Assembly (NCBI GenBank): GCA_040285855.1
Contig: JAUFOQ010000017.1
Span: 434,001-498,000, forward strand
Direction: 5' to 3'
DNA length: 64,000 bases
DNA from: Eukaryota sp. GEM-RC1
Taxonomy: Eukaryota
Within the stretch, counting starts at the first letter, position 1. Every line of letters begins with the position of its first letter. The position numbers and the translations under genes are program-made. A model generated the notes under the pieces. It saw nothing but the letters and a program-made list of their open reading frames with translations. It was not told the DNA's origin and made no database searches. This document shows positions 567 to 54,501 of this stretch, piece by piece.

Positions 567-656
567 TACAACATTTGGTGATACAACATTTGGTGATACA
601 ACATTTGTAACTACAACATTTGGTGATACAACATTTGTAACTACAACATTTGTAAT
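567..656. repeat. Tandem array, 6 x 15 bp TACAACATTTG(GTGA/TAAC)
   Basis: Units read directly at 567, 582, 597, 612, 627 and 642. Confidence 0.9.
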
Positions 657-844
657 GAAAGTGTCGTATGTGTAATGAATTGTTGACCTAGACATGACTC
701 TTATCTGTCTTCACTAATCAATGTGTTAACCCAGCCAAGAAAGATATTCACTATTAATGTCTAGAGTTGACTGAAAAGAACACCTTCGATCTTTTGAATT
801 GTTGACTATTTTATATTAGAATTTACAAAACTACAAGTGCTTTC

Positions 845-1248
845 TGTAACACAAAATGTGTTTTACAAGATCTGTAATACAACATTTGAAACACAAGATC
901 TGTAACACAAGATGTGTTTTACAAGATGTGTAACACAAGATCTGTAATACAACATTTGTAACACAAGATCTGTAACACAAGATCTGTAACACAAGATGTG
1001 TTTTACAAGATGTGTAACACAAGATGTGTAACACAAGATCTGTAATACAACATTTGTAACACAAGATCTGTAACACAAGATGTGTAATACAAGATGTGTT
1101 TTACAAGATGTGTAACACAAGATCTGTAATACAAGATTTGTAATACAAGATGTGTTTTACAAGATGTGTAACACAAGATTTGTAATACAAGATTTGTAAT
1201 ACAAGATGTGTTTTACAAGATGTGTTTTACAAGATGTGTAACACAAAA
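845..1248. repeat. Tandem array of 14-bp variant units, consensus ACAAGAT(G/C/T)TGT(AAC/AAT/TTT), roughly 29 copies
   Basis: Direct reading; the array also produces the spurious repetitive ORFs at 831-1120. Confidence 0.95.
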
Positions 1249-1262
1249 TGAAACTATCAAAA

Positions 1263-1799
1263 TTACCTATATTTTCCAATCTTTTTCAAAATTAAATATA
1301 ATTCAAATAAAACACACATCCCAATCTTTTCATCATTTTTCAAATACTCTTTCAAAACATGAAACAATTCCACAAGCACATCACTACAATAACGTTCATC
1401 AACATTATCCCTATTAATCACATCGGTAATGTAACAGTTTCTTATTGTTTTCACTTCCATACTTGATGCATATTCAGATCCAATACAATCTAGTACATTA
1501 TCGACAATTGACTGAATTCCAATAGTTAAGTCCACTCTCAATTGTTTTGAAGTAGCAACACGATTATACTCCAAAATAGGAGACAATGATATTGTTTCAT
1601 AAGTCATATTGTCAGTTTGTTGATATTCACATATGGAATCACATTTTTCATTTTCAAAGCTTTCAGTTTGAACTTCCTTGAGACAAAATCGCTTTTCATC
1701 ATCAATAAGAGGAAATACTTGGGAACTTTTTCTTTCTATACCAGCACTGACATTCTTTTTTAATAATAAATTCTTCGTTGGTAAAGGGGTTTTCTTCAA
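1263..1799 (-). CDS. Hypothetical protein, possibly the frameshifted C-terminal extension of the Pif1 ORF
   Basis: 178-aa ORF without its own ATG, on the same strand as and downstream of the Pif1 C-terminal ORF; the intervening sequence is acidic/low-complexity and looks coding. Confidence 0.4.
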   Translation of the reverse strand: MKKTPLPTKNLLLKKNVSAGIERKSSQVFPLIDDEKRFCLKEVQTESFENEKCDSICEYQQTDNMTYETISLSPILEYNRVATSKQLRVDLTIGIQSIVDNVLDCIGSEYASSMEVKTIRNCYITDVINRDNVDERYCSDVLVELFHVLKEYLKNDEKIGMCVLFELYLILKKIGKYR

Positions 1800-2065
1800 A
1801 CGGGGAAGCGATGGTAGAGTAATGTTGCCTCGTGGTAACTGAGGAAGTTTAGACTTATTGACACCAATCTCTGGGGAATTTTTGTTAAAAATTGAGTCAC
1901 AATTAATAAATTTGGGAGGAATATTAGTTTCATCTTCTTCAAGTTCATCATTTACAACAAAATCATCTAAACTTGTTGAAATTGTATCACTATCAGATTC
2001 ATCACCAGAATCGGATCCTGATAGTACAGCTTCTGTTTCAAATAAATTTGATTTGTCTAAATGAT

Positions 2066-3747
2066 TTAAACGATTTTTTCAAAGTCAATAATTTGATTAT
2101 CATTATTTTCAATAATTTGTTCATCAACATTATCAACAACAACTTCATCAACACAATGAACAATTTCAGGAACAACAACATCATCCATAATTGGTTCACT
2201 CGATTCTGCACAAAAGTTTGCAAACAATGAATTAAAATGATTGAAATCTCGTTGAAGACAATGTTGATTTCCCAAAACATACAAATCAATAGTGGATGGT
2301 TTAACAGGATGAAAAGTTGAATAATACCATTGGTACAATTCCAAATTTGGTACCGGATAACTTCTTCCAATACTTAAAATCTTTAAACTCCTCCAAGACC
2401 TAACCGTACTTAAGGTCACATAAAGTTGGGCATATTCCCAAAACTGGATAGCAACTTCAATCCCGTCAATTGTTAAACCTTGGGATCGATGCACTGTTAT
2501 CGCCCAGCAAGGTCTTAGCGGAAACTGAATTCTTTTCGCCACTTGAACAGGTCTTCCGATTTCGTTCAAGTGTTCGATAGCAAACCTTGACTGACTGATT
2601 CTTTTCGGTTCTGCTTCAGCGTTGAACCGAACATCAATATATGAATCTGAAAAATTAACAATAACTCCTTTTGAACCATTAACTAGTCCAAGTTCAGGCT
2701 TATTTTGAGTGTACATCACTTGTCCACCCACAACGCATTCTAGTTTTTTTTCAGCAAAGTCATCCAAGCGACTTGTCAGCACAGAAGTTTCAATGTCATA
2801 ATATTTTTCCAAATTAGATTCATTGACTGGAAATCTAGAACTTCTTTTTCTGATTTGAGATTTTAATTCAGATTCATTGAATTTGTCAACAGCTACAAAT
2901 TCAATTGAATCTGAATTTTGGCCAGAAGTTTGAATTGTTTAAAATTTTCTCTAGCAACATCAGTATTCTTTCCGTATAAAATTGTTGGGTTTTCAACAGA
3001 TTCTGCTGTTTCGAAATGAGTACGCAGAATTGATTTCATAAAATTATCTAACAGACCCAATCTCAATTGATTTAGAAAATTAAAAAATTTTGAGTCTGAT
3101 TGCTGACGAATACTTCCAGCCAGTTCACAATATTTAAAATTTAAATTGTTCCAAGCTCTTGATGAAAAAGCGAAATCAGAAATTACCACTTTTCGATTTC
3201 CTTTTCCATCAAGACTTTTCACAACAGGGGCTAATTGAAGAAAGTCCCCAAAACAAATTATCTGAATTCCTCCAAATGGTTTCTTCGGAGAGTGACATTT
3301 TTGCGTGTGCATAAGTTCGCCCAAAATGTCACTCGCCCGTTGAAACAAATTGGAGGATAACATTGAAATTTCATCAATGATTAACATTGTATTTTTTGGA
3401 GTAATATTTTTTAACAAAATTTTGACATTTGATGGCATACATTTGATAACATCATGTATGGATTCTTCTTCTTTCATAAACTTATAACCAAACAGTGAGT
3501 GTATGGTCTGTCCACCAAAAACAGTTGAGGCAACCCCAGTTGTTGCAGTGAAGAAGATTTCACCATTAGCACGCATGAGACGAGATCCTGCGTTATTCCA
3601 CCAGTATTTGAGAGCATGTAAAAGATAAGATTTTCCTGATCCTGCACCACCAGTGACAAAGAAGTTGTGTCTGCTGGTAGTGATTGCGTTAAAGATCTCA
3701 CGTTGGTCATCTGTGAGATTGATGTTGTGTAAAGAGGTTGGTGCCAT
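2066..3747 (-). CDS. PIF1: Pif1-family SF1B DNA helicase, split by frameshift(s) near 2812-2893
   Basis: Motifs FVTGGAGSGKS, TATTGVAS, GGQTIHSLFG, LIIDEISM, PFGGIQIICFGDFLQLAPV, RQQSD..F...LNQLRLG, GLVNGSKGVI, QFPLRPCWAITVHRSQGLT, QLYVTLST. Confidence 0.9.
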
Positions 3748-4535
3748 TGAGTTGATGGATTGTTTGAGCGCAGGGAAACTTGGTCTTCATCAAATTTCTC
3801 TTTCACTTCAAACTATGACTTTATCCAGGGACTGTATTTCAGTCGGGGTATTACAATCTCACATTTCCGCAGTTCACGACTTCAAGTCCTTTTATATTGA
3901 TTCTGTGAACATTTGTCCTTCCATACGATTCATATGCAAGAATTTTCTATATCACACCAGTAGTAGTGATGGAGGATGTGTGTTTGTATGTTTATATGTA
4001 TCATCTCTGACTTCTTTTTGTAATAGTAAACTTCGTTTTAACATCTATGTCTTCTTGTTTATAGATCAAATCTTACTTTCCAACTATTATGATATTACTC
4101 AGCGACATTACTCAGCGACTAACTAATACATCTAGCACCGTCTTCCAATAGAATCAACACAAAATGTTAAAAGAGGAAAAGAGTGAATGTGTTTCCGATA
4201 AGTTTGGCGAGAAGTGTAAAGCAGTGGATTGACCAAACAATAAAGAGTACGCGTAAGTCTGTTTGACTGGGATTAGAATTGTCATGTCTTGATGTTGTCA
4301 TATAAAAGATATGCAACGACGATACGCAAACGAGACACTAGCTGTTTATTATACAAGAAGGAGAATCAAAGACCAAGGGGTAACAATATGGCATTTAACA
4401 TGTGTATCGGGTGTATGTCTTCAGCAAATGTCACTAGCCTTCAGTTTGGGGAGTCACATAACTCTTAAAGAACGAGAAGTAACAGAGTGTGGCTTCGTTG
4501 TGGATATGAGTTTGGATGAAGAAAATGTGGATGTA

Positions 4536-4781
4536 GATACAAGACTGGATGTGTTTCACAAGATCTGTAATACAAGATGTGTTTCACAAGATCTGTAATA
4601 CAACATTTGTAACACAAGATGTGTTTTACAAGATGTGTTTTACAAGATGTGTTTCACAAGATCTGTAATACAACATTTGTAACACAAGATGTGTTTTACA
4701 AGATGTGTTTTACAAGATGTGTAATACAAGATGTGTAATACAAGATGTGTAATACAAGATGTGTAATACAAGATGTGTAAC
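4536..4781. repeat. Second array of the same 14-bp ACAAGATGTGTAAT-type units, about 17 copies
   Basis: Same unit variants and same orientation as 845-1248. Confidence 0.95.
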
Positions 4782-4790
4782 AATATGTAT

Positions 4791-6838: not shown

Positions 6839-9800
6839 ATGAAATTGCTCCGGATATATCTTCCCCATCGTTTCAAAATGCCATTCTCTTCCCCCAATAC
6901 AACATATAGGGATAACATGCTCGTAAAGAAGAGTCATGCCTTGAACTATTGTTGTTGTTGTTCTCCTCCCGTTGTTGAAGCGAAGTCCTCTCTTTCTACG
7001 CCCCCTTCCCCCAATACAACATATAGGGATAACATGCTCGTAAAGAAGAGTCATGCCTTGAACTATTGTTGTTGTTGTTCTCCTCCCGTTGTTGAAGCGA
7101 AGTCCTCTCTTTCTACGCCCCCTTCCCCCAATACAACATATAGGGATAACATGCTCGTAAAGAAGAGTCATGCCTTGAACTATTGTTGTTGTTGTTCTCC
7201 TCCCGTTGTTGAAGCGAAGTCCTCTCTTTCTACGCCCCCTTCCCCCAATACAACATATAGGGATAACATGCTCGTAAAGAAGAGTCATGCCTTGAACTAT
7301 TGTTGTTTTGTACGTGTTACTGAATCTAATGCCTCTCCATCCCATAGTTGGTTAAGAAATCTCACAATGGACGGTGATGTAGAGTCAAATCCCGGTCCAT
7401 TTCCACCCTCCGCTCACTCAGGCTGTGCATTTATTTCACATGAGTCTGTAATCCATCCTGTGAAGAACATTACAGGACATCGTATATGTACTTGCTTGGA
7501 ACACTATCACCTGAATGCTTCACAGTCTGTTCCAGAAGCAATGACTGATCGTGATCCCATTTCTTTTACTGAATGTAAGTCTCAACTAGACAATGCTCTT
7601 GCTCATTTTGATCTACCAATGAAAAGACTTTCTGTTAAAAATATTTATGATTACATTACATCCTTCTTTGAATCTCTGATTGCCCCAGAAGTCGATCATG
7701 TTTTTGTTGAGTTTCTAGAATATCATAATGAAGTTTTCACCTCCATTGACTTGCCGTCCCTGAAAGTTTTACCATCGCAACAACTTCTACAATTTTCTGC
7801 ACAAAAACGTTTGACAATTGATAAACAATGTTCAAGTTACGCCATTTGTAATCAATGTATGCTCCCCCGACAGCCTGGTATACTTCCACAACAGCATGAT
7901 TCGACCAGGCCCGTCCAATGCTGTTTAACCGCTCATACTCTTGATTTCTCGAAATTCATTCGCGTTGTAAATCCTGCCTGTTGTCTTTCGTTAACAACAA
8001 TGTTGACGATAGCACTAACACTGTGTCATCAGTATTTGCAAAGATCTAAATTTTTTAAAGATACCTTTCCAACGCCAGATTCTCTTTCCCCATTCACAGT
8101 TGATTCAGCAAGAGAAGTAAAAACTTGGCTGCGAGATCTGACCCCACCAAAACATTTTAACAAAAATTACTTGGAAAAACTACTCAATGAAATTGTAGAA
8201 TATGCTGAAGCTGCCGATGGCCAAGCTGTTCTTTCAGAACAAACAACTGACGAAGCTGATGAATATGAACAAGTACAGGATTTTAATAATACATCTATTG
8301 ATATGTCTGTAAGAATTGAAAACTATGCTTCCCGATTACTCAATGTTGATGCAAAGTTACAAGATACCTGGATTTTTCGATCACTCTATCGCTTTTATGT
8401 CTTTGCCAAGACATATTTATTTTCAAATGAAACTGATCAAGAGAATTACCGAAATCAACAAATTTCTTCAATTTATTTGTTGGTATTTATGCTAGGTTAT
8501 CAAAGTTACATTATTTCCACTTCAGAATTTGAAAATTGTTTTGAACCCTTTGTAAATCTAATGAACTTCCCATTTGTTTTCATTAGCTATATATTCAATG
8601 GAACAACACATGAAGAAGTTGTTGAACAAGCAATTAAAGATGCTTTGAAATATAAGACAGAGAAAGCCAAAGTTATTGATTTATTACAAGATGTTGAAGA
8701 AACACCCGAAGATCTTACCGAAATTCTCCTTGATGTTAATGCTGTTGATGCTATTGAACCAATTGAGGTAAACCGTCATGATACTAATTTCGATGATCTT
8801 ATGACTGAGCTGATGGATTTAAAATGCGACCTTATTACTCAAATTACTCCAATTATCATCACTCACTGGAAACAATATGCTAGTAGACACAATGTAGACC
8901 ATTTCGCATTGTCTAGTTTGATGAATGTTCTATTTCATGCTCAACGAGATCATAAATTGTCCTTTGTCTCGACTTCTACTGGAAAGAATAGTTTTACTGA
9001 ACTATTAAAGCATTTAATCAAGTGTTATTGTAATTCTGATCGGAGTTATGATTTACCCTATATGATCACTGGTTCAACTGGATCAGGAAAATCTACACTG
9101 TCACCTGTTATTTTTGCGCTTACTTTTTTTAGCAAAGTCATTGTTTCCCAACCAACGGTACCTTCGGCAATCTTTTTGTCTGAATTTCTTAACTCCTTAA
9201 CTAGACCTCGACTGGGTAGTAAATTTATTTACGATTACCCCATTGCTGGATATCACTGTGGTGGTGGGGTATACAATTTTTCAGACAATACTTTGGTTCA
9301 TTATCAAACAACTGGTTTAACTCTCATGTTGTTGATGAATCAGCATTCATTTGTTTCTACTTACAAAGTCGTCATTGTGGATGAAGTTCATGACAGAACT
9401 ATAGATGTCGATCTGTTACTCACAGTAATGAAAATTAATTTAAAAAACTCGGGCATTATACGTGGTTTGTCATCCGCAACTATTGGATCAACAACTGCTG
9501 AACTTAACCCAGTTTTTAAACACTTTGCTCCCTGATAATCAATGGACAGAGACTGATTTACTTAAAGAACAACAAAACCTTATGTTTGACACTGGTCAAT
9601 TCTCAAGAGTCCTGAACGTTTTCGACTTTAAGAATTTCGAAACTAATGACTGGTATTCAAAACTTACTGAAGGATTTCCCCCTCGATTTCGAGAAGCTGT
9701 CTGTGATCATCAACATGATTTTCGTGCAGAAGTGGTAAATTATAAAAAACACTTTGAATCTAAAGTAGATCAGAGACTTCACCCGTCGATTATTAACTCA

Positions 9801-9938
9801 GACGCACTCCTGCAATTGATAATTGTTATTTACAAAATTGTTGTCAAATACTTTGTACTAACAAAACTTCATACAAGACAGTCAGATGTTCCAGGTATAA
9901 CATTAATTGTTTTTTTACCTGAAAAATGTTCCTGTTGA
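6839..9938 (+). CDS. Polyprotein: repeat leader - 2A peptide - unknown domain - DEVH/DEAH-RHA-type SF2 helicase; frameshift near 9530, truncated after motif IV
   Basis: WLRNLTMDGDVESNPGP at 7349-7399; helicase motifs ITGSTGSGKST (I), VSQPT (Ia), YQTTG (Ib), VIVDEVHDR (II), SSATI (III), LIVFLP (IV, in ORF 9462-9938). Motifs V/VI are absent because hAT sequence begins there. Confidence 0.8.
6889..7307 (+). repeat. About 3.6 identical tandem copies of a 117-bp (39-aa) unit in the polyprotein leader
   Basis: CCCCCAATAC anchors at 6891, 7008, 7125 and 7242. Confidence 0.95.
7349..7399 (+). other. 2A-like (StopGo) ribosomal skipping peptide WLRNLTMDGDVESNPG|P
   Basis: Exact match to the D(V/I)ExNPGP consensus, with a typical 'LTxxGD' upstream context. 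Confidence 0.85.
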
Positions 9939-12093
9939 TTGCATTTTGCAATTATTGCAATAACACTGTATTGCAGTATTGCAATACAGTATTGCAACTG
10001 GTTCGAATATTGCAGTACGATATTGCATGTTGTTTCGTTATTGCAGTTATTGTAAGCAATACTCAGCCAATTGCCGAAACCGTTTTATTGTCATTTTAGT
10101 AGTGTGGTGTACTTAAAGCATATATTAAAAAATTAGCTGGTGTTGTGAATATCAGTTTATAAAACAACAGTAAGATGATTATCTTGAAGAGACGAATTTT
10201 GTCAGCTAAATTTCTCTTTGTATGACCCTGCGAGTAAAAGAAACAAATTCTGAACCAACTCCGGCACAACGATCGAGGGCATATTTTACCGAACTCGATA
10301 CTGAAACAGCTGAGGTTCAAAACTTTCTCAGCAAATCACCAGTAAGAGATCGAGATGATGTTGAAGTATGGAAATGTAGATGTGGTGTTTTTCGTACTAG
10401 AAAGCCGAACAGTGGCTGGTCGAATCTCTCATCCCATGTTGTATCAGAACATGTTGATTGGAGAACGGAAACATGGCAATTGCTTAGAGAAGCGGACTCA
10501 AATCAAGATATCTCAAGGATCTTTATTCCATGCAAAACGAAGCGTTACTATTCTTGGTTGGACTGGGTTGTTAGTGAAGGCCTACCCTTTTCAGTTGTTG
10601 AATCTGAAGTTACTCGTTGCTACACCAATCTCCAACCTATCTGTTTCAACACGTTTGTCGACCTCTTTGACTGCCTTAAAGAACATATGTATCATCAGTT
10701 GGAATCTCTACTTGGGTCATGCTTTGCGCTCATTATCGATGCTTGGAAAAGTCCGTCCACAAATCTTCATTATCTCGGAATCTTTGCCATGAATCGTTCT
10801 CTCTCATCCCCTGTCTTTCTATCACTGTTGCCCTTTGAGGCTGAAGCTGGCTCCACTGTCTTCGATAGAATGTTTGGCACAGATGCAGTGATAAACTTGA
10901 TTGAACATTCTCTTGTAATGTTCAACAAATCCTGGCAATGGTTGCTTGTATCGTAGCAGACAATTGTCCGACAATGAAAGCCGTAGCCACCAGAATTTCG
11001 TGTGGATTTGTAGGCTGCGCTTCTCATCGGTTTCAGTTAGGAGTACGGCAGTTCACTTCTCATTTAGACACTGTCTTCAGAAAAATCAACACTATTATGA
11101 AACTGCTTTCTGAACCAAAAAGGGCAACTGTTCTGAACGGTTTCACGAAATTAAAGCCCAAAAAGCGGAATGTCACTAGATGGCACTCGACTGAAGCAAT
11201 GGTTAGACGCTATATAGAACTGAAGGATTCCATTGTCAAGATGATTGTTGAAGCTGCAGATCAAGAATTGTTGCAATATTTGCCATCCTCTTCTAACCAG
11301 TTCTTCTACAAGCATTGAATGATCTTGAAAATCTTGCATTTGTGAGTTTACAACTCCAACGAGAGGATATTGATATGCTAAGTGTACAAAGATTGTTTGC
11401 TTCCACTATTGATGTATACTGTCAAGAAAACGAAAATCCAGAGCTCAAGGAACACCTGACATATCCTGCCTCTTTACGTGCCAGATATCCTGAAAACCAG
11501 GTTCACTTTGAAACGGCAGTTCTCAAACTGCTTCGTAGAGGCGAATGTTTAACAGAAGATGAAAAGAAATGGGTCCAGTGTTTCATTGAACACCCAAATG
11601 CTGAGCCAAGAGCAGGCGAGAGACGCCTTGCCTCCATAAAAGACGTTTTCAGTCAGAAAACAATCGAAGAAGGTTCAACTTATCAAGATCTTTCCTGGAT
11701 TCCTCCTACATCTAACGTCGTTGAAAGACTTTTTAGTCGTGTCCGATTTATTCAAGGATTGAATCGTCATTCTTTGAGTCAAGAACGTCTCGAAACTCAA
11801 GTGTTTTTGTCCATCAATAGACATCATTGGGATATGCAATTGGTAGCCAAAATGATTGTTGATCGAAAACTAGATTTGTAATCAATAGATTGATATAATG
11901 GTATGCATGTCGAATTTATTGAAACATAAATGTAGCACTTAAGCAGCAAATTTGTTAAAAAATATTGCAGTACAGTATTGCAAATGTACCAATTATTGCA
12001 ATACAGTATTGCAACTAAACCAGTTATTGCAATACAGTATTGCAGCAACAAAAATTTTCACAATATATTGCAATTATTTATTGAAGAGCCCTG
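9938..12093 (+). mobile_element. hAT DNA transposon; right end ...GAGCCCTG at 12093 (alternative end ...AACATCCCTG at 12297); left end degenerate
   Basis: Transposase ORFs plus subterminal TATTGCA repeats on both sides, including the palindrome TTGCAATAC-A-GTATTGCAA at 9979-9997 and 11996-12014. Confidence 0.8.
10222..11881 (+). CDS. hAT transposase in three ORF pieces (2 frameshifts)
   Basis: BED-like finger WKCRCG..GWSNLSSHVVSEH; LIIDAW (D), IVADNC (D), GCASH (CxxH), VTRWHS, PPTSNVVERLFS (E) and dimerisation domain. Confidence 0.9.
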
Positions 12094-12502
12094 ATATAGA
12101 GTATAGAATATACATCAACACGTGTTCTTTTTGATGCTAGTGCATGTGTAGATCATGTACATATACTACTGAGTGACTCAATTTCTCAAAATGGTTCAGA
12201 ATGTATCTGGTTATTGCTTACAATAACTACACATTTGTTTGCAATACTATTTTGCACGAGGCCATTGCAAAATGCAATTACCGTTTGAACATCCCTGAGT
12301 TAAACCCCATCTGATAAAAAATAAAACACATCAATAAACATCTAACTTTTCTCATTGCACTCAGATCAACTTAGCTAATAGTTGTTTGTGATACTCGAGC
12401 AATGATTTAATAATAAAGCTTATTTAGTACCACTGTTACAAAAAATACATTTTGACAGTGTTCAACTAAACGATAATGTATATTTAATTCACATACACAT
12501 GT

Positions 12503-18948: not shown

Positions 18949-21900
18949 CTACAGACCAAAAGGATCGTATTTCTTAGGCTGTTGCCTTGGAGACTCACCA
19001 TCCTTCTTAAAAGATCCGTTATCCAAATACTTTAGTTCAAAATCCAACACAAAATGAAAAGAAAAGAAAGACAATGGTTCAACAATTCCAATTAGTCGGT
19101 CCAAAGCATCAGAAACTTTACCAACACTACTAGCATTATTGAAGTAGTATCGATGTACAGCAGTTTCATCAGAATAGATCTCCCTCAAAACCCCACATAA
19201 CATCTTCTTTTCTAAACAATCGCAAATGAGAGCACGGAAACGTTGAGCATCGTCAGTAAATTCAGAAAAGTTTCGGATTCTATTAACACTAGTAGCTAAC
19301 AGGGGGTAATTTGACCAATTATACTCAGAAAAGAACTTCCAAAGGGAGTTTCTGTAAATAATTCTAACAGTTGGTTTTAGACCAAGTGATAATAAACTGC
19401 TCAATCCAGCACAAATCCCGCCTCTCACCAACGACGACATTGCCACGTCGTGGGGCTCACATCCACGTGTTGATGACGTGGAAGATTCAAGATAGGACAC
19501 TAACTTCGTTACTTTCTGTTGAATCTCTTTGAAGGGGTTTTCTAAATTAGTCATTGCACCAGACTCAGACTCATTATAGTTATTAGTAGTCTTCATTACT
19601 GAAACATCCTGATTTGACTTGAATTTAACTGGCAACTGAAACGTGAACTGAGCGTCCAGCATCTCAGCAACTGCCACGTAGTGACCGACAGGAGAGTTAC
19701 GGATGGGAGCGTCCTCGGTCCAAAAAGTAGCAATCAAGTTGACGTCAGCAGCGAGAGCTCTCATTAAGACTGCCAGTCTTGAGGTGTTGAGAGCTATTCT
19801 AAGGAGTAACACCGATCGAAGACGAGTGATTTCGAACTTAGGCATTCGTGGTAAATCTAAAGAAGCAGCTTCCGAAACTAGCTTTATGATTGCAGGCATT
19901 TTAGACTGGGAGATGGCATACCACAAGTCAACAGAAGTCAACAGACCTTGCCCTTTGATTCCAGTTGACAACGCACCATGCAATAGCTGTACAATCTGAT
20001 GAGGTACCGGGTTAGACCCCGGGATGGCCATCTTGCAGAGGAGGAATTAGGAAGTCCTTGTACTGAGTGTAACTCTGCTACCTTCTGTAACAACTCATAA
20101 GCAGATTGATCAGGTTCTGAAGAAGGCTGTGGAGAAAGACTCAAACGTGATGGTGACGATTTCTTTTGAGATATTAATGAGTTTTGAGCTTCTTGTAAGG
20201 AGGTTTCAATCTTGGATGGATTCCTGTTCTTCTCTGAATAAACTTCCCACATTAGGGATACCGGATCTCTTCTAAGCATTAGAGGAACCCCACAGGTTGG
20301 TTCTTGAGGTACTGTGACAACGGTGGCTGCTGCACGACGACATACAGGGAAACGAGAGACGTTTAGGAGGGGTTTACAGTCAGGAGCTAACTGCCATCCA
20401 TGACGTGTAGGGACGAGCTCAATATCTGAGACACGGACTGTGGAGATCGCATTAGGAAGGGTACCTTTACGTCCTCTTTTTGAGCTGAAGAAACCTGTCA
20501 CGTCAGCAGGATCGACAAGGTCAATCACAATGCCAGTGTCCTGAGAGTCTTCGATGATCTCTACTCGATGACGATGAGAACGTTGAGTTCGGGTAGGTTC
20601 GATTGAAGTGGTTTTTCTTAGGGGTTTTTTGGCGGCAGGTTCGATTGGAGCAGTAGTAACACGTGGTTTTGAAGGATTATCTGTTTTGATTGAGTGTGAT
20701 TGGGATCCAATTTTAGGAGTTTCAACAGGAATTTGAATGGGTTTCGAAGATTCCTTTGGAATTTGAGTTTGTGATTGAATCGCTTTTGCAACAGGAATTT
20801 CAACTGGTTTTGAAGCTGTTCGTGAAATTTTGACTTTATCTTGAGTTGGTTTTGCAACAGGAAGTTCAACTAATCTCGAAGATTCCTTTGGAATTTGAGT
20901 TTGTGATTGAACCGGTTTTGCGACAGGAATTTCAACTGGTTTTGAAGCTGTTCGTGAAGTTTTGACGTTTTCTTGAGTTGGTTTTGCAACAGGAAGTTCA
21001 ACTAATCTCGAAGATTCCTTTGGAATTTGAGTTTGTGATTGAACTGGGTTTTCAACAGGAATTTCAACTGGTTTTGAAGCTGTTCGTGAAGTTTTGACTT
21101 TATCTTGAGTTGGTTTTTCAACAGGAATTTCAATTGGTCTCGAAGATTCTTTTGGAATTTGACTGTGTGATTGAACCGGGTTTTCAACAGGAATTTCAAC
21201 TGGTTTTGAAGCTGTTCGTGGAGTTTTGACTTTATCTTGAGTTGTTTTTTCAACAGGAATTTCAATTGGTCTCGAAGATTCTTTTGGAATTTGAGTTTGT
21301 GATTGAACCGGGTTTTCAACAGGAATTTCAACTGGTTTTGAAGCTGTTCGTGGACTTTTGACTTTATCTTGAGTTGTTTTTTCAACAGGAATTTCAATTG
21401 GCCTCGAAGATTCTTTTGGAATTTGAGTTTGTGATTGAACCGGGTTTTCAACAGGAATTTCAACTGGTTTTGAAGCTGTTCGTGGACTTTTGACTTTATC
21501 TTGAGTTGTTTTTTCAACAGGAATTTCAATTGGCCTCGAAGATTCTTTTGGAATTTGAGTTTGTGATTGAACCGGGTTTTCAACAGGAATTTCAACTGGT
21601 TTTGAAGCTGTTGGTGAAGTTTTGACTTTATCTTGAGTTGTTTTTTCAACAGGAATTTCAATTGGTCTCGAAGATTCTTTTGGAATTTGAGTTTGTGATT
21701 GAACCGGGTTTTCAACAGGAATTTCAACTGGTTTTGAAGCTGTTCGTGGAGTTTTGACTTTATCTTGAGTTGTTTTTTCAACAGGAATTTCAATTGGCCT
21801 CGAAGATTCTTTTGGAATTTGAGTTTGTGATTGAACCGGGTTTTCAACAGGAATTTCAACTGGTTTTGAAGCTGTTGGTGAAGTTTTGACTTTATCTTGA

Positions 21901-22517
21901 GTTGGTTTTTCAACAGGAACTTCAATTGGTCTCGATGATTCCTTCGGACTAACAGCCTGGTCTTCAACCGAGTCCAGTGGTTTTGCATAAGAGCCATTGA
22001 GAGGAGTTAGCTCACCATAGCTCCTAGTAAATGAGGAAGTAAGAGAATCAAAAGATCCCGAAGTACTTTGATAGGATAAAACAGGAGAGGGAGGTCGCTG
22101 TATTGGTTCAGATAATCTTAAGAGCTCCTCGTCAGCAATACCAGACTTTGTTGGATCAGAGTTGTTCTGAGCAGCAGCCTCTTCTTTAAGTAAAGATTGA
22201 GCCCGCTTTAGTGCACGTATCCATGATGCTGATTCACTTGGAGTACGAGCAAGAAGATGGAAGGTTTTGTGCGGAACGGCAATTTCGAAACGATCACCAT
22301 TACGAGAAAATGTTGAGTTTAAAAGTGGAATAGATCCTATAGGATCATCTTCTGCTGTAGAGCTGGAATAGTAGTTTAGACAATAGCCCTCAAGGCGAAA
22401 GAATCTTCTAGAATAGGTCCCAAAGAAGCCATCCTTAAGTTTCAGAAACCCATGTAGGACAACTGAAGAAAGAGACATATGAGTATCGAGATTAAGTCTT
22501 GAAAATTTGAAGGACAA
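18949..22517 (-). CDS. PH-domain, proline-rich repeat, RUN-domain protein (frameshift near 20030)
   Basis: N-terminal PH (GFLKLK..RRFFRL..LNYY..PIGSIPL..W..AL); C-terminal RUN-like segments (L..GLK...W.F, RFRALICDCLE..L, ..YY...). Confidence 0.75.
20720..21940 (-). repeat. Coding minisatellite, 132-bp (44-aa) unit made of two 22-aa halves, about 9 copies
   Basis: PVEIPVENPVQSQTQIPKESSR / PIEIPVEKTTQDKVKTPRTASK repeated. Confidence 0.95.
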
Positions 22518-22796: not shown

Positions 22797-23532
22797 TTAT
22801 TGAGCTGGGACAGCTGTGGGAAAAGTGATGTAAACCTTGCTTTCTGGTTCACCGACGTGCTCAGTTTCCTTGGGTTCATAGAAGGTAATTTTGTCGGGTA
22901 GAACTGAAGAGACTTGGGGATTCTTAGGTTGGGGAAGCATAATGGAAACCTTGATACCAAGGACACCTTGCTTCAAAAGAACATGACGGGTGGCAGTTTC
23001 AACATGATCGATGTTTGGTTGACCGGTCTTGATCATATATCCAGATCCGAACTTAAGACTTTTGGCACGAGCACCACGGACTTTACCGGAGATCATGATC
23101 TCACATCCCTTACCACCAGCCTCAGTGATTTGTCTGATGACACCATAACAGGCCTTACGGACAGCGGTTCCACCGAGAATTTTGAACTTGATGGATTCGG
23201 CCTGAGCAGCGGCACAGAGTCCACGTTCCTCCACACGTTTGGCGAAAAGAGCTAGGCGTCCTTCTTCGAAACCCCATCTCTTGGAGATAATGGAGGTGAG
23301 CTCACGGATACGGCGAGCACCTTCACCCAAAACTTCGGAAGTCTTAGTAGCGTGAATGACAACTTCGGTTCTTAGGGGAGTCTGTCTAACATTAAGACCA
23401 GCAAACCCGGCACTGGCCAATTCACGTTCAAGAAACTCATTGAGTTCGGCGAAAAAATACCGTCTGAAACAAACTAAGATAAGGTGATCGCAGGGAGAAA
23501 GATACCTTTTTCTTCTTGTTGATAACGTTCAT
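22797..23532 (-). CDS. RPS3: 40S ribosomal protein S3 (uS3); exon 1 23506-23532, 32-nt intron 23474-23505, 1-nt homopolymer deletion near 23455
   Basis: [14 protein letters not shown](IFF)[69 protein letters not shown]...TTAG intron. Confidence 0.97.
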
Positions 23533-28657: not shown

Positions 28658-29311
28658 ATGTCGACAGTGACTTATTTCCGTCTCATGACTCCATCAGGTT
28701 TGTTGATGTCTCACACAGTAAGAGGTTCCAATCCTCCTCGGCTGGACGTTTTGTATCCAGTTGAGACTGAAAGTTCCATCCTTTCAGTTATGTGTTCAGG
28801 AGGTTCCAATCCTCCTAACACTATAAGAGGTTCCAATCTTCCTCGGCTGGATGTTTTGTATCCAGTTGAGACTGAAAGTTCCGTCCTTTCAGTTATGTGT
28901 TCAGGAGGTTCCAATCCTCCTCGGCTGGATGTTTCGTATCCAGTTGAGACTGAAAGTTCCGTCCTTTCAGTTATGAATTTGGGTGGGGACTACGGCCCTA
29001 ACCCAGGATTAACAACTCAGGGCAGTTGCAGAGAAGAGGCTAACAGCTTGATATCTGCAACTCCTGATGAGTTAATACCGCAGTGGTCCGTGTCTTGTTG
29101 TAAAACTCGACAAAAGCAATTCACTTTTGATTTGGAGAATAAACACAATTTCAAATTTTGTTTGATTCATTTGTTTGTGAAAGATTTAACCAACGATGGT
29201 GATATCGAGTCGAATCCCGGACCGGTATCATTTAACTCACATGAATTTGAAGACATAACATTGTTGTCTGAATGGGAATGGTTAGAGCTATTCCATCTTC
29301 TTTTTCCATAA
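28658..29311 (+). CDS. Polyprotein segment 1: repeat leader, 2A peptide and start of the Ulp1-like domain
   Basis: 26-aa repeats, FVKDLTNDGDIESNPGP, then EDITLLSEWEWLE; the frame changes at the T-run near 29301-29305. Confidence 0.75.
   Translation: MSTVTYFRLMTPSGLLMSHTVRGSNPPRLDVLYPVETESSILSVMCSGGSNPPNTIRGSNLPRLDVLYPVETESSVLSVMCSGGSNPPRLDVSYPVETESSVLSVMNLGGDYGPNPGLTTQGSCREEANSLISATPDELIPQWSVSCCKTRQKQFTFDLENKHNFKFCLIHLFVKDLTNDGDIESNPGPVSFNSHEFEDITLLSEWEWLELFHLLFP
28722..28975 (+). repeat. Three 78-bp units (last one partial) plus a 27-bp insert; each unit contains three short hairpins
   Basis: GAGGTTCC anchors at 28722, 28800, 28827 and 28905; stems GAGG/CCTC, CTGGA/TCCAG, ACTGAAAG/CTTTCAGT. 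Confidence 0.9.
29174..29224 (+). other. 2A-like (StopGo) peptide FVKDLTNDGDIESNPG|P
   Basis: Exact D(V/I)ExNPGP consensus with 'DLTxxGD' context. Confidence 0.85.
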
Positions 29312-30531
29312 ATAATATCAGTTTGGATTACCCACTCGCCAATCAAACTATTGGATTTTATCATGTATATAACTTTCTAACGTTAGAGAAAGATGTTATT
29401 TATCATGATATAAGAGAAAAAAATGCAGATTGTCGGCTTGTTCTTATTCTCATGAACAATGGTATTATTGACGGATTTGCGGGAACTCACTGGGGACTAT
29501 GTGTTGTAGATTTCATGACTGAAACGTTATACTTCATGGATTCTATTTCTAATAGTGATTTGTTGTCCTCAAAAATTCATTTTATACAATCGTTTTGCCC
29601 AAACAACTTTTACCATTGTCACATTAATTCTGTGAAACAGGACAATGGTTATGATTGTGGCATATTTGTTCTGTATTTTATTGAAGTTTTATTTAAGACA
29701 TTTAACGTTGAAACAATTGGTCACATTGATCACTGTATAATGATGACAGATTTTCAAAATGAAATTATGCATCATCAATTTGATCCCTCTCCATTTCGTA
29801 TCAGATTGAATCTAAAACTGGACAGCCACGTTAATCCAGGAAAAAGACTGGCCACTATCAGCAATATGCCTCCAAGAAAACAAAAACGATCAAACAATAG
29901 TAATGAAAACGAACCGCAACTGGTGAAAAAAATAATTGGGCGTAAATGTTCAAAGTGTAGAAACACTGGTTATGATATAAGAAAATGCCCATTGGCAGTA
30001 AAAACAAGTGAAAAAACAAACGAAAAAGAATCACCAGTTAAGTCTAAAAAAAGAAAAGATCCTTTCGAAAACGTAACCTTAATGTTAGATCACAAACACT
30101 CGATTAAGTGTATTTTTGTGAAAATGATCGAAGCTTCAGCAGCTATTAAAGAAACTAAAAAAGAAAAAGAGAAAAAAATAATCACATCAATAATCACTCA
30201 AACAGTTCAGGTCCAGGTCCAAGTAATTTCAATTGTAGAATCAATTATATTCACTACACAACAAAGTATCGATTCAGTTCTGTCACGTAATTCTGAGCAT
30301 GCTAGAGTGAATGTTCAAGCGTTTAATCAAGAGGAATCTATGATTAGTGCGTTTAATGATTATTTAGTTTTAACTGACTGTGGTCTGATAATTGGTTATG
30401 ATGCAAGTTCTACGTTGGATGAATTTAATTTTAAATCAGAGAATTGTTCAATTATTCAGTGTCCTCTCTTTTACAAATATTTTTTAAAACAATTCAAAAA
30501 TTCAGTTGATAGATTTGGGCCGTGTTATTAG
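29272..30531 (+). CDS. Polyprotein segment 2: Ulp1/SENP8-like C48 cysteine protease plus CCHC-like zinc knuckle
   Basis: THWGLCVVD (His 29488), YFMDS (Asp 29539), KQDNGYDCGIFV (Gln 29638, Cys 29656); RKCSKCRNTGYDIRKC at 29941-29988. Confidence 0.85.
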   Translation: MGMVRAIPSSFSINNISLDYPLANQTIGFYHVYNFLTLEKDVIYHDIREKNADCRLVLILMNNGIIDGFAGTHWGLCVVDFMTETLYFMDSISNSDLLSSKIHFIQSFCPNNFYHCHINSVKQDNGYDCGIFVLYFIEVLFKTFNVETIGHIDHCIMMTDFQNEIMHHQFDPSPFRIRLNLKLDSHVNPGKRLATISNMPPRKQKRSNNSNENEPQLVKKIIGRKCSKCRNTGYDIRKCPLAVKTSEKTNEKESPVKSKKRKDPFENVTLMLDHKHSIKCIFVKMIEASAAIKETKKEKEKKIITSIITQTVQVQVQVISIVESIIFTTQQSIDSVLSRNSEHARVNVQAFNQEESMISAFNDYLVLTDCGLIIGYDASSTLDEFNFKSENCSIIQCPLFYKYFLKQFKNSVDRFGPCY

Positions 30532-33139
30532 AAATTTTTACAGACCTAGAACTGGAAAATCTTTGAATTGGGTTACTGTTGTAAAGAACATTTTAAAAAA
30601 TGAAAGTTATTCAGTTCCCACACCAGTTTCTACAGATTTCACATCTGAACAAAACTTGAAATGTTTACGTGAGCATTTTAACGATATTGTTGAATTACAA
30701 AGCCTTTTTGTGTATTTCCTTCAAGTCGAAACACAAGAGTTGCTGAAATGCCCGGGTGAAAAAACGGTTAAAGTAACACAAAAATCTGTTTGGAGTGATA
30801 ATAACTTATTGGTTAATGAAATTTCTATAAATCATCACCGAATTAAACAACGTGCATTGCTGCTACTTCAAGGCTTTTGCATGAACTCTTTTGATAACCA
30901 GGAATTGAATCCAGTAGAATGGACCAAAGAAAGTGTCCAACAATTGCTCTGGAATATTGGATACTTGTCTCCATTAGCTCATCAAAGATTTAAAAATGAG
31001 GAAAATATTGATGGAACTGAAATTCTCAAATGGGTAACTGAGATTGTTCAAAGTACTCCAGGCAAAAAGCACAATGCTTTGAAAGTTCAATTGGGATGCT
31101 TCTATATCCAACATCTTCTCCCCGTGGATATGGAAATTCCCAATGTCAAGTACTCTGATATGTCTCGTACACTAAATTATACAGCTACTGAGATTGTTAC
31201 AATGTATCAAAATAATATTTCATCCCATTTTATTGAATATTTGGAAAAACATGGGAACTATTCTTTAATTTAAATGGACAACTAGAAATTATTAAAAACA
31301 ATGCACTTAAAAAAAGTCGAAAAAGACCAGTTGCAAAAGTTGTCTAACAATATCCTCAAAGAAATTTTAGAAGGCAGAGGATCCGATATTGATTTTACCG
31401 AGATCTGGCAAAATCCATCAGATGAACATCAAAATTTCATTACATTTGTCAAAAACTTTAAGCCAGACTCTAAAGGACTCAAATACCAATTAAAGGTAAA
31501 GCCTTTGGAGCTCTTACCAGAGGCCTTCGTTCTCAACAAATTGATTGAGAATAATCCTTCCTGTAATGAGATTCCACCAAAGATGTACCGCATGTTTCCA
31601 CAATCCACCAGCTTAATTCCTGGTCACCTTCGATTGGATACGCTAGCTATGATTAATTTATTTAAACCTCAAGTTCAAGGTTATAATCTAAAACATCTGA
31701 GCGAAAACATTAATTTATTTAAAAATCAAATTTGGAGCCAGTATTTGAATCTTGATCACAAATACTTGAACACCTTCAAAAAGATGTATTCATTTGGTCA
31801 CCAGATAACTACCAATGGTGAATCAATCAGTCTCATGATGACCAGAAATGATCTACTGTTCAAACCATACTCTGCCAAGTCTCCGGAGGAAAAAGAGGAG
31901 TATGTGGAAGATTTACATCCTGAAAAATTAGAGGATTTAAAAAATAAAAAAAGTCGTGGTGGGGGACCCTAACCAATGGGATATTCTGTACTTGGTTGGA
32001 AGATAAACCCAGGAAGAAATTGATAATCCTGGGCATTGTGCTCCCCACTTGACCCAAAAATCTCAAAAACATATGAAAAGAAGAGATTGAAAGAAATTAA
32101 AAGGCATAAAGCCCAGTTCCAAAAAGAGAATAATGAGGTCAAAAAATCAAGTAAAAAGAGACCATTTCAAAAGAAAAATCAATTCAAAAAAATGAGATAT
32201 ACTCAAGGAACTCGAAGGCACGAAGGAAAACAAAAAAAATACAATGTATTTCAGAACCAAGCCTTCAAAAACTATTCTTTTAACGAAATTTCAGGAAGAC
32301 AACTGACAGCTGAACAGATTCAGACAGAATTTTCAGAATTTACTTCCAAAACAACAAATTTTTCAAAATTCAAAGCGTACGTCCAACAATTCTACATGTA
32401 TGCAAATAGAATGGAGTCTCTGTACCATCAATCTAAATGGCGCAAATGGAGCTATTGGAAATCAGTATACAAGGAAAAAAGTGAACGTAAAATGCTCCAT
32501 CGATTCCGTCAAGTTTACGGAGAGCCAACCAACACGTGGTTGGCCATAGGTGATTGGAGTCAGTCAAGGCATAGGAAATACAAGCCTCCATCCATGGGGA
32601 AAGGATCGAGAAAGTTGTTCAAAAAAGCTGGCTATCAGGTTCTTCTGGTTAACGAATTCAGGACATCTCTTCAGTGCCACGGATGTTCTGAGAACAACGA
32701 TGACGAAGGGGAAACGGAAACCTTCCTTAAAGTCAAGGATCCAAACTTCCGGAAGAAGAAGCGAAGAGTTGACAAGAAGGCAAATCGCCTATCAGCGCTG
32801 AGGAATTGGTCTAGTTGGACGGACGAAGATGATAAGCTGTTGTGGCAGGAAGAGCCCGATGAAGTCAAGTGTTGGGGTTTAGTGCGTTGTAAAAAATGTC
32901 ATAAACTCTGGAATCGAGACTTCAATAGCTGTTTGAATATTCTAAAGATTGTTGAGTGTACTCCCGCTGGTGAGGATCGACCAATGTGTTTCTCTGACAA
33001 GTTAGCTGAAGAAAGACGGAAGAGAGCAGCAAAGAGTACAAACAACAATGAAGATTCAATAACAGAAACAGTGGCGGACCCGCAAGGGATAGAACCGCCA
33101 CAGCCCATGTGCACTGTGAGTGTAGATGAATGTCCATAA
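30506..33139 (+). CDS. Polyprotein segment 3: Fanzor1 (eukaryotic TnpB-like) RNA-guided endonuclease, broken by homopolymer frameshifts
   Basis: LNYTATEIVTMYQNNISSHF, MFPQSTSLIPGHLRLDT, ITTNGESISL, RuvC-I KVVVGDPN (Asp 31965, read after the A7 run), RYTQGTRRHE, AIGDWS..PPSMGKG, RuvC-II LVNEFRTS (Glu 32654), CHGC...CKKC, RuvC-III WNRDFNSCLNI (Asp 32918), ..RP. Confidence 0.9.
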
Positions 33140-33814: not shown

Positions 33815-33886
33815 TTCTTCTGCCCAGAATCGAACTGGGATTGCTTGATTCAAAGTCAAGCGTGCTAACCATTACACTACAGAAGA
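33815..33886 (-). tRNA. tRNA-Gln(UUG)
   Basis: TCTTCTG TAGTGTAATGGTTAGCAC G CTTGA-CTTTGAA-TCAAG CAAT CCCAG-TTCGATT-CTGGG CAGAAGA A; full cloverleaf. Confidence 0.95.
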
Positions 33887-34610: not shown

Positions 34611-34675
34611 ATGAGTGGTTATCGTTGTTAAGGATTTCAGTTGCCGTATAACGCGTGATGATCGAAAAATTATTA

Positions 34676-35492
34676 AGGGGCTCTATTCGGTAGGGCTCTA
34701 ATCAGTAGGGCTCTAATTTAGAGCCCCTTCCGCATATGGCTCTATTTGGTAGTTTTTTTCTATGAAAAGGAGCCATAATCAATACAGGGGAGGAGTTTTT
34801 TGACTTTGTGCTCATTAATAGTCATATAATATAAAACAATAACTAATAGGGTTGTTAAAGGTCACAGGTCACAGGTCAGGTCAATTCATTTGATGACCTT
34901 GACCTGACCCGTGACCTGTTACTGTGGACCTTGACCTGACCTTTGACCCGATTTATGTGATCTTGACCTGACCTTTGACCTTAATCAGTTGACCTTGACC
35001 TGGCCTTTGACCTGAAATCTACAATTTACTTTATTCTTTAACTATCGAAAATCCGTATAAACAAAGTCAAATCTAATGATTTCTTGAATATTAGTGTATA
35101 CTAAGAGTAAATGGCGTGAGTTAATGTAATTTTGATCATTTAAAACAAGATACTAACACATAAACTGCCAAATGTTTGACCTTGACCTGACCTTTGACCT
35201 GAATGGTAAGACCTTGACCTGACCTTTGACCTGATGTTCGTTAGCTTGACCTGACCTTTGACCTGAATGGTAAGACCTTGACCTGACCTTTGACCTGACC
35301 TGACCTGTGATTTTCAGGTCTTGACCTGAACTTTTAACAACCCTAATAAATAATGATTTTATTTAATGTTTTATATGAATACGTCAAATAATAAGTTATT
35401 TCCAGAAACGGGGTCTATTCGGTAGGACTCAAATTTAGAGCTCCCATCAATTGGGGCTCTATTCGGTAGGGGCTCTATTCGGTAGTTGACTG
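34676..35492. mobile_element. Remnant of a Tc1/mariner-pogo-like non-autonomous element with GGCTCTATTCGGTAG repeats, interrupted by a hAT MITE
   Basis: Repeats at 34678-34752 and 35411-35485; right end ...GTTGACTG|TA (reverse complement TA|CAGTCAAC); matching left end not found. Confidence 0.5.
34847..35345. mobile_element. hAT-type MITE with TGACC subterminal repeats
   Basis: 13-bp TIR TAGGGTTGTTAAA / TTTAACAACCCTA; 8-bp TSD ATAACTAA / ATAAATAA (7 of 8 match); many GACCTTGACCTGACCTTTGACC units. Confidence 0.9.
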
Positions 35493-35534
35493 TACTATCG
35501 ATAAATACACTTTAATAAAATATTTGTTTATTCA

Positions 35535-42311: not shown

Positions 42312-42925
42312 GAGACAACCACATGTTCATGGTAATCAATTATTGTTTTTGTTCAGTTCAGTGACAAAGTTGAGTTGTAGTCTTTAATTGAGTATATATA
42401 TTAAACTGAACCATTTGACATGCTTACTAAATATCAAAGTCCAGATTTACATTTACTCTGGTTCTCACTTATTATCTCGGTAACTCATTAGTTTGAATCA
42501 TAAATTAGTCTCGTTCAGATTTGTCATGCAGTTATATGTAGTCGAAACAATCAACTTTTCTGTGAATTGTTAATATGCCTAGTTACTGTTCTAAAACTCT
42601 GATTCAAGTACAAGAAATTTAGACCATCAAAACTCCAGAGACTGGTTGATACATTGACTTTAACAGTGTGCTACTTTCAGTTTTCAGTTGGAGACAAAGG
42701 CAAAGTCGTTGCAAAACACGATGTAAAACTGATCCAACAACTTACGAAAGCTCTGATCTTCGATTCATCTTTTCAAAGAAAAGATGTGTATTCGTTCGAC
42801 TCAATATAGTTCACCTTGTAACTGATACATATGGAGAGCAGTAGATAAAGCAAATTTGCTTCAAAAAAAATCTAAAAATTTATTTTAATTCCATTATTCT
42901 CTTATTTCCTTTGTCTACCTAAGAC

Positions 42926-48900: not shown

Positions 48901-50156
48901 CAACAACAACTCTGGTGACACTAGAGCTATTAAAAGAGAGCTAGTATCTGTTTCCCTTGATTCTCGAGGTGTTTGGTACTTCAAGGAGAACTCTTCTTGG
49001 ATTCGTTATGATGAACTTTGCCAAGAACAAGTTGAACAAGCCTTTTCCAACTACATCAATGGAACTTCTGCAGTAGTCTCTTTAACTTTCCCTGGTCGTC
49101 CTGAGACTTATCTCTTGGACTTCAGTCAAGGAACTCAAACCAATACCACAAGTGGAGTTGTAAGTAGTATTAAGAGAGATGTCAAGGAAGATGTTGGTGA
49201 TGGTACCACATTCAACTTTAAAGTTGATAATCAGAATGATCAATCAGAGGATGGTCAGAATCAACTTCTTAAACTGATTGAAGGTCAACTCTCCGAAATG
49301 ATTGTCAAAACAAGCAATGATTCCGAATCTGATTTTGTTCTTATTTTTGATACCAATGAGTCCACGTTCATTTTAACCCTTGGTCCATCACTTTCTTCTA
49401 TTTCTCCAATTTTATTCTCTGTTGTTTATCGTTGTCTCAAATCTCAAGGAGTTTCTGTTTTTGTTACAGAAGATGAAGCTAATGATGGAATATCAAATCT
49501 ACGTTTAAGAAATCTTTTATCAGGAATTATTCCAACTAAAATGGATCGTGATGGAGTTATGCAATACTTAGCTTATATCCTGGTCTGGAACTGTAATTGT
49601 ACAATTTTCGGTGCATATGTTAGAGATTTCCTTGTTAGAAATTGGAAAGCTAACGGTATCGATGTCATTGTGAGCTCTACTCAATCGTTGGATGACACTA
49701 TTGGAAACTTTAAAAATGAACTACAGTTTTCAAATTTCAATCCAGTTTTTCGGGATTTGCCAATGAATAATAATATCTGTAAGTCTATTGATGTTAGTAT
49801 TGGAAACTATCAAATTCAAGTAGAATTTACCACTGCTGATGGTTTACGACAGCTTGACAACTCTGCACCTCCTTATGTTGAAGCTGACGTTTCAAATCTT
49901 ATTCTTAACAAGTCTGGACTTGGATTTAAGGAGCCAGGAGTTCAAGAAGAAAAAAGCAATCAGTATCAAAACGACCATTGAACATGCAATTAATCAAGAG
50001 TTTGTCTTCTTTTACGATTTGAATCAGTATCCCGCTTTAAAGTGTAGCCTCCAGCGATTTAGAGATCGTGGTTTTGTTTGTCTTTCGCAGGTTCCAGTTC
50101 ATTGTTTGGATATATTTGAACCTTTACCCTCTCCTTTCTATAGACCTTTGAATTAG
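42926..50156 (+). CDS. Multidomain protein: La motif/RRM - DEAH helicase - RING/IBR - PARP-like ART - 2x WWE - nucleotidyltransferase-like (last ~60 aa after a frameshift near 49950)
   Basis: QFNYWFG..GWVSFTKIRTF (La); AATGSGKTTQ, CTQPR, IIDEAHER, SSAT, TNVAETSLT, QRKGRAGR; CVFC..LCGHTYCRSC..CPKC; C..HEC..FCSKC..CTSC..H...C; AWHGT..GPGEYFG; QWYWQDD and VWYFKE..W..Y; IFGAYVRD. Confidence 0.88.
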
Positions 50157-54284: not shown

Positions 54285-54501
54285 ACTTTAGTTTTATTAA
54301 ATCTAATTTTTGAGCCATCGGGTAAAGAGTTGCCAGAACAATGCAATGTCATCAATTTGTTGAGATTTGGGTATTCTTTCTGTGTTTATGTACTAGTAGT
54401 ATTGTAGAAAATTGTATTCTCCATTGACATTGACGGGGAATACAACTCTATACTCTATAGACTGATACAAATAAAACAAATAGAAATACACTATTTCTAT
54501 C

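Follow-up and report, generated by a model that had tools for sequence, protein, structure and literature searches.

A truncated member of a multicopy gene family pairs a 2A/StopGo-like leader with a DEAH/RHA helicase in Eukaryota sp. GEM-RC1

INTRODUCTION

Most known cellular 2A (StopGo) sequences come from LINEs, with others in some immune-type genes, and what they do in their native setting is an open question (bioRxiv 2026.06.17.732966). In APE-type non-LTR retrotransposons (L1Tc, Ingi, CR1, L2, and Crack), a 2A-like motif lies near the N terminus of a long open reading frame (ORF) in repeated sequence, some copies carry a decayed motif, and canonical motifs can be inactive (PMC3708506). 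Viral StopGo sequences of the DLTxDG class include motif 4 of PMC12846837 and entry A42 of PMC12338488; a tested example of the class is almost 100% active (PMC12846837), A42, from a picornavirus, has no activity value, and an iflavirus 2A ending DLTQDGDVESNPGP has an activity of 0.99 (PMC12338488). The 344-row structure table of PMC13405545 has three curated helicase calls: a PIF1-like protein preceded by a canonical 2A, and two proteins with non-canonical motifs, one RecQ-like and one DHX29-like, the latter with its motif in an internal position. In a literature search mostly outside subscription papers, no canonical 2A in front of an RHA helicase came to light, nor any report on transposon-borne DExH helicases or on 2A with DEAH proteins; the word "helicase" is absent from the main text of the 2A papers searched.

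Here we describe a locus in a 64,000-nucleotide stretch of DNA (the window) in which a 2A-like motif precedes a DEAH/RHA helicase split over two reading frames, ORF A and ORF B. Like the 2A-bearing non-LTR retrotransposons, it has the motif near the N terminus of a long ORF in repeated sequence and decay of the motif among its copies; unlike them, it has a DEAH/RHA helicase behind an orphan region as its enzyme, and scans of ORF A, ORF B, and the related gene models P0007, P0008, and P0009 detected neither an APE/RLE endonuclease nor a reverse transcriptase. The core octapeptide is exactly that of viral DLTxDG StopGo sequences, but the element is a nuclear repeat, and its 2A would free a short leader instead of separating functional proteins. 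Motifs I to VI and, apparently, HA2/OB-like C-terminal features are shared with cellular DEAH/RHA helicases (Prp2/16/22/43, DHX35, DHX29/36, MLE, Spindle-E, and bacterial HrpA/HrpB), to which the element is at most 45% identical over part of the core and from which it differs in being multicopy and 2A-led, in having a motif Ia without the two arginines, and in having no subfamily placement. The 2A-PIF1-like protein (one row in supplement 4 of PMC13405545) has the same order of short leader, canonical 2A, and helicase protein; that enzyme is an SF1 DNA helicase, whereas the element encodes an SF2 RNA helicase in which no Rep domain was found. We assign a probability of roughly 55% to the reading that the locus is one truncated copy of a multicopy gene family, probably spread recently on a mobile element, with a 2A predicted to free a short leader from the orphan region and helicase.

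RESULTS

Layout of the locus

The window is AT-rich eukaryotic DNA in which housekeeping genes (gelsolin/villin, ribosomal S3, bromodomain, PSMD12, and capping protein) are interspersed with repeats. Near-identical proteins carry the label Eukaryota sp. GEM-RC1, which the taxonomy lists among unclassified eukaryotes and which is presumably a free-living anaerobic protist (metamonad). The element copy sits between a Pif1 block and a hAT-like element and has the following features.

6839 to 9535, + strand: ORF A (898 aa when counted from its first ATG), encoding the repeat leader, the 2A, the orphan region, and the first RecA domain of a DEAH/RHA helicase
6888 to 7311, + strand: tandem 117-bp (39-codon) unit, 3.6 copies, with an in-frame ATG in each unit
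7268 to 7396, + strand: shortest leader, Met144 to Gly186, 43 aa; Met144 is kept in the diverged copy P0005
7349 to 7399, + strand: 2A/StopGo-like motif, DLTxDG-type upstream hexapeptide plus core DVESNPG/P
7397 to 9058, + strand: orphan region, 554 aa (residues 187 to 740), with Cys/His clusters near its start
9071 to 9481, + strand: helicase motifs I (GSTGSGKST), Ia (SQPTVPSA), Ib, II (DEVH), and III (SAT)
9530 to 9538, + strand: end of ORF A, CCC-TGA-TAA; with one +1 step, reading continues from ORF A into ORF B and meets no stop
9444 to 9938, + strand: ORF B, with the III-IV insert followed by motif IV (IVFLP, 9906 to 9920)
9921 to 12093, + strand: hAT-like DNA transposon cutting the helicase short, with 31-bp subterminal repeats at both ends and a transposase in three frames

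Gene models near-identical to ORF A start at 6878; the Walker A, DEVH, and SAT motifs start at 9071, 9380, and 9473. The original prediction took 6839 to 9938 as one unit encoding a DEVH helicase with motifs I to IV. All of these motifs are present, but not in a single ORF: ORF A, with motifs I to III, stops at 9533 to 9535, and motif IV is found only in the +1-frame ORF B. The three full 117-bp units are identical to each other. A Pfam match to PPIase_AIP on these repeats was treated as a repeat artifact, with no stretch passing alone.

A 2A motif that fits the DLTxDG class

The 2A motif is WLRNLTMDGDVESNPGP at 7349 to 7399 (WLRNLTMDGDVESNPG/P), with a predicted skip site between G186 and P187. 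Its core octapeptide, DVESNPGP (7376 to 7399), fits (D/G/C/N)(V/I)ExNPGP, a pattern with two matches in six frames of the window against 0.00017 expected; the core is not due to chance. The upstream context, WLRNLTMDG, shows two conservative differences from the class pattern WV(R/K)DLTx(acidic)G, and 14 of 15 residues match the picornavirus entry A42 (PMC12338488). Three relatives cover the site: the motif is identical in P0001 and P0004 and decayed in P0005, whose core, DVDSDTGP, carries three changes. By these residues the element 2A fits the DLTxDG class, and ribosome skipping is predicted.

Given the in-frame ATG in each repeat, the leader could be 43 to 186 residues long. The term "polyprotein" was therefore an overstatement, as the 2A would release only this short leader. 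The 2A had also been placed directly after the 39-aa repeats; both features were confirmed, with about 14 unique residues lying between them. RNA folding around the 2A, the repeat, and the frame break gave z scores between -1.27 and +1.34.

Near-identical copies of the gene

Seven other gene models under the label Eukaryota sp. GEM-RC1 match the window copy, six of them at 99 to 100% identity where aligned and the seventh, P0005 (a 164-aa diverged model, found separately), at 78% (102/130 residues). Against the window, identities are 756/758 for P0001, 641/644 for P0004 (the three differences begin its private frame break), 166/167 for P0003, and 113/113 for P0008; against P0008, they are 477/478 for P0007 and 330/331 for P0009. 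The protein cluster of ORF A has four members, including the window's own model, and that of ORF B has three. Many of the models are fragments. The copies are known here as proteins, and their dispersion was read from the protein records, which give seven different, widely spaced locus tags on contigs of three lengths, taken as three contigs. Repeat number varies among otherwise identical copies, with one unit fewer than the window in P0001 and two fewer in P0004; P0005 has a single unduplicated unit. Judged from these records, the family is recently amplified and dispersed, in the pattern of a young dispersed repeat.

A single-copy, vertically inherited orthologue, the contrary outcome set beforehand, fails against these copies. 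The proposal of a mobile-element gene is supported because there are seven matching models, six of them at 99 to 100% where aligned. The search for intact paralogues yielded these seven relatives, among which P0008 supplies motifs V and VI, and no annotated copy under the same organism label that spans ORF A and ORF B joined. Against mobility, no mobilizing-enzyme domain, whether transposase, reverse transcriptase, or endonuclease, was found in the family proteins examined (ORF A, ORF B, P0007, P0008, and P0009). Third-position GC is 0.26 in the element against 0.33 to 0.57 in five housekeeping genes; composition is weak evidence because the large helicase gene at 42923 to 49981 has a similar value (0.29).

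The orphan region

An unknown stretch of about 550 aa, Cys/His-rich at its start, had been predicted between the 2A and the helicase, and this description holds: residues 187 to 740 (554 residues) have no credible family match, and Cys and His are enriched in residues 187 to 236 (3 C, 6 H) and 337 to 386 (6 C, 2 H). Among 1.84 billion representatives, no credible relative was found outside the Eukaryota sp. GEM-RC1 label. The search gave two matches, P0005 and the repetitive bacterial protein P0006; the latter (E = 3.7e-8) was rejected as a relative, with only 48 residues matched. The Atlas gave no usable match. As for the suggested structural check, single-sequence folds had low mean pLDDT values (34.7 for window positions 7397 to 9532; 36.7 for P0008).

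Helicase domains and placement

DEAH/RHA motifs I to VI are all present across the copies: I to IV in the window and V and VI in P0007 and P0008, the latter (921 aa) running on through both beyond motif IV. The PDB matches of P0008 are DEAH/RHA helicases (best E = 4.9e-18), the Atlas gives a feature score of 0.95 to Helicase_C/HA2/OB clusters (TM 0.41 to 0.48), and in Pfam only Helicase_C exceeds the cutoff. By these comparisons the C-terminal half of P0008 looks like cellular DEAH/RHA proteins with HA2/OB domains. Its true C-terminal end is uncertain because P0008 and P0009 part after residue 850. Within these ends, neither model gave a match to a Tudor domain as in Spindle-E/TDRD9, and Spindle-E is the last of the 60 P0008 matches listed.

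A homologue search returned 6,598 of 7,993 candidates, of which the best 120 were mostly HrpB, at 33 to 46% identity. HrpB was rejected as the closest kin: it heads the list, but the tree leaves the element outside the HrpB group. A scan of giant-virus contigs gave 181 confirmed RHA helicase stretches; the best 80 of the 181 were kept, and 78 of these yielded a usable core. Tree 1 (quick method) has 99 distinct rows, namely, the viral cores, 25 of 28 hand-picked matches, the window's other RHA gene, and the element; tree 2 (careful method) has 38 hand-picked rows from tree 1. The element row is ORF A joined to P0008, and the trees contain no named poxvirus NPH-II or TDRD9.

The element forms a long branch in an open fork, with 2.66 and 2.11 changes per column in trees 1 and 2, respectively. 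Among these rows, which include no named NPH-II, neither tree puts it within the starred viral clade; tree 2 leaves it out of the starred viral (98/88), HrpB (100/99), and eukaryotic DEVH (96/95) groups, although a long branch can be wrongly excluded. The proposed phylogeny against cellular RHA and viral families gives the element no subfamily placement and an apparent position outside the viral clade. The DEVH motif and the long stretch inserted ahead of motif IV (131 residues as represented in the tree, where 16 codons are omitted, versus a median of 69.5 in the 62 rows measured) resemble the eukaryotic DEVH group. Survival of motifs I to VI despite a branch of 2.1 to 2.7 changes per column points to long selection, as far as residues can tell.

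The cellular RHA layout, together with the DEVH motif and a long III-IV insert as in eukaryotic DEVH relatives, speaks for the main rival explanation, namely, that this gene belongs to the host, most likely encoding an RHA helicase of antiviral defense or RNA silencing, and that its 2A leader was borrowed from a mobile element and it multiplied by segmental duplication or as passive cargo. Such an origin would agree with the 2A-like peptides in death-domain, NLR, and ankyrin proteins (bioRxiv 2026.06.17.732966) and with the presence in the window of another large helicase gene, with WWE domains. The copies, though, are 99 to 100% identical, are often fragments, and have no detectable relative in other organisms, and the element helicase shares just 31% identity, across 141 residues, with the other RHA gene in the window and does not group with it. 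We regard a host gene as a serious but rather unlikely origin.

The virus-derived half of the original prediction is unsupported for the helicase. An endogenous fragment of an RNA virus (as the 2A source) or of a giant DNA virus (as the helicase source) could explain a 2A nearly identical to that of a picornavirus, and it draws on the RHA helicases of giant-virus contigs and on the long branch, which leaves the helicase placement unsure. Against it stand the cellular-type C-terminal half and the position outside the viral clade in both trees, as well as the absence of a 2A from all of the best 80 of the 181 viral helicase loci. No close relative was confirmed in viral or metagenome contigs, and no viral hallmark gene was found among 35 window ORFs (Pfam) or 9 proteins (PHROGs). 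HA2/OB-type C-terminal regions, moreover, are not known as an RNA-virus feature. A viral origin is accordingly judged highly improbable, and a gene spread on a mobile element remains our preferred reading.

The frame break between the RecA domains

ORF A stops at CCC-TGA (9530 to 9535), and motif IV follows in the +1 frame. P0001 and ORF A share their last residue. The models P0007 and P0008 both open with the first Met past the break, even though a Met is present in ORF A a short way upstream of the break. Other frame breaks are private to single models. Going by these model ends, the +1 break appears common to P0001, P0007, and P0008. A lesion inherited from one master copy is a possible explanation that falls short of probable, and the same holds for a systematic assembly error. 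A 40-nt GT-AG intron at 9512 to 9551 would join the frames too and is very unlikely.

The break could also be a programmed +1 frameshift at CCC-UGA, by which most ribosomes would stop after the first RecA domain and a few would make the full helicase. A single +1 step at CCC-T restores a continuous frame, CCC makes up 0.9% of codons in the window's long ORFs, the end of P0001 and the starts of P0007 and P0008 agree with the break, and three Listeria phages as well as two antizyme mRNAs use CCC-UGA for +1 shifting (PMC5009743). However, indels are among the errors of the assembly (a T run in the ribosomal S3 frame lacks a base), a +1 offset is also seen in 3 of the window's 9 other overlapping ORF pairs, and an inherited master-copy lesion accounts for the sharing equally well, in addition to the competing intron. 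Testing the three junction frames against a profile yielded no signal over background and did not tell the coding frame apart, and no stimulatory structure was found downstream (z = +1.34). We therefore consider programmed frameshifting unlikely.

The assembly shows short introns and homopolymer deletions, and the remaining 6 of the 9 other overlapping ORF pairs are -1. Ribosomal S3 (22797 to 23530, - strand) presumably needs a 32-nt intron plus one extra T in the T run, judged against the expected S3 sequence.

Truncation by a hAT-like element

The window equals residues 1 to 113 of P0008 at 100% over 9582 to 9920 and then departs; the remainder of P0008 was not found in the window. The gene is cut after motif IV at 9920, and the window copy is dead because motifs V and VI are lost. 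On its transposase motifs, the element at 9921 to 12093 is putatively hAT-like; the pieces gave no match in Pfam or plasmids and no relevant match in PDB. A terminal sequence of this element lies at 12080 to 12093, no left terminal repeat matching this right end was found, and the 8 bases past the right end occur once in the window. In the simplest reading, insertion of a transposon followed by a deletion truncated the helicase. A second hAT-like end, inverted and matching 10042 to 10085 at 73%, lies at 12100 to 12297 as a nested remnant.

A second 2A-led locus and other loci in the window

Another 2A follows a repeat leader 22 kb away.

28661 to 33139, + strand: second 2A locus, 105/78-bp repeat leader, then DLTNDG-DIESNPGP (29183 to 29224)

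After this 2A come an Ulp1 protease (PF02902), a CCHC-like knuckle, and TnpB/Fanzor-like frames (PF07282) with several breaks; a decayed 2A-like sequence, GDYGPNPG, lies near 28985. The leader is unrelated to the element leader apart from the 2A region. The lengths of all three repeat units (117, 105, and 78 bp) are divisible by three, consistent with leaders that are translated, and the second locus suggests a reusable leader module. The literature search gave no report combining StopGo and Fanzor. Neither window 2A peptide is a eukaryotic entry in the supplementary tables searched (PMC12338488 and PMC13405545); the largest PMC13405545 files, outside this scope, could hold one. A tRNA-Gln(TTG) lies at 33815 to 33886 (- strand), about 700 bp past the TnpB/Fanzor-like frame.

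Upstream of the element, the block at 567 to 4788 holds a broken Pif1 helicase (PF05970, 1263 to 3786, - strand) between two direct arrays of 14-bp units (845 to 1250 and 4548 to 4788), beside a 15-bp array at 567 to 655; the block may belong to a larger element, perhaps the one that carries the helicase gene. The gene at 42923 to 49981 (+ strand) is a 2352-codon open frame with a DEAH helicase, a Cys-rich stretch that is putatively RING/IBR-like, a putative PARP-like motif, and two WWE domains; it looks like an immune-type gene. At 53226 to 57878, 703-bp arms that are 99% identical (53582 to 54284 and 56409 to 57111) are nested in older inverted repeats, with no long ORF between the arms; our reading is a foldback or non-autonomous element. 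A MITE-like block of non-coding DNA at 34675 to 35494 has two 32-bp arrays (TGACCTTGACC), with 30-nt inverted repeats and 15/16-bp repeats as their frame. A 132-bp coding repeat (9.3 copies, 20720 to 21948, - strand) lies within a PH/RUN-domain gene.

DISCUSSION

If the gene spread on a mobile element, an intact copy would work as follows. Translation would begin within or upstream of the repeats, and the ribosome would skip the Gly-Pro bond, shedding a leader of 43 to 186 aa, and continue into a product of about 1,650 aa (ORF A past the 2A plus the P0008 part). The leader repeats could expand freely because the leader would be discarded. By analogy with the proposal for 2A-led LINE proteins (PMC3708506), the 2A would likely ration helicase output. 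The helicase would probably serve the element by remodeling RNA-protein complexes, with the element's own transcript and host silencing complexes as examples. The likely carrier would be a DNA transposon or another large element, with its enzyme encoded beyond the part seen.

A bolder proposal would be that the family represents a novel class of mobile elements in eukaryotes, centered on a DEAH/RHA RNA helicase and expressed by two recoding steps, in which StopGo would free an expandable leader, a +1 shift at CCC-UGA between the RecA domains would set the level of active helicase, and the repeat-plus-2A start would be a portable expression module that also heads the Ulp1/Fanzor-like element. 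We hold this to be a long shot.

What appears to be new here is the pairing of a 2A with a helicase, an unusual enzyme among 2A-led repeat genes. If the shared CCC-UGA break is programmed, the gene would use two recoding events; if it is an error or a lesion, the interest rests on the 2A-helicase pairing and the carrier. A virus-like canonical 2A ahead of an RHA helicase in a young repeat family widens the range of cellular 2A, and copies with different leader lengths, one of them with a decayed 2A, form a natural series for leader function.
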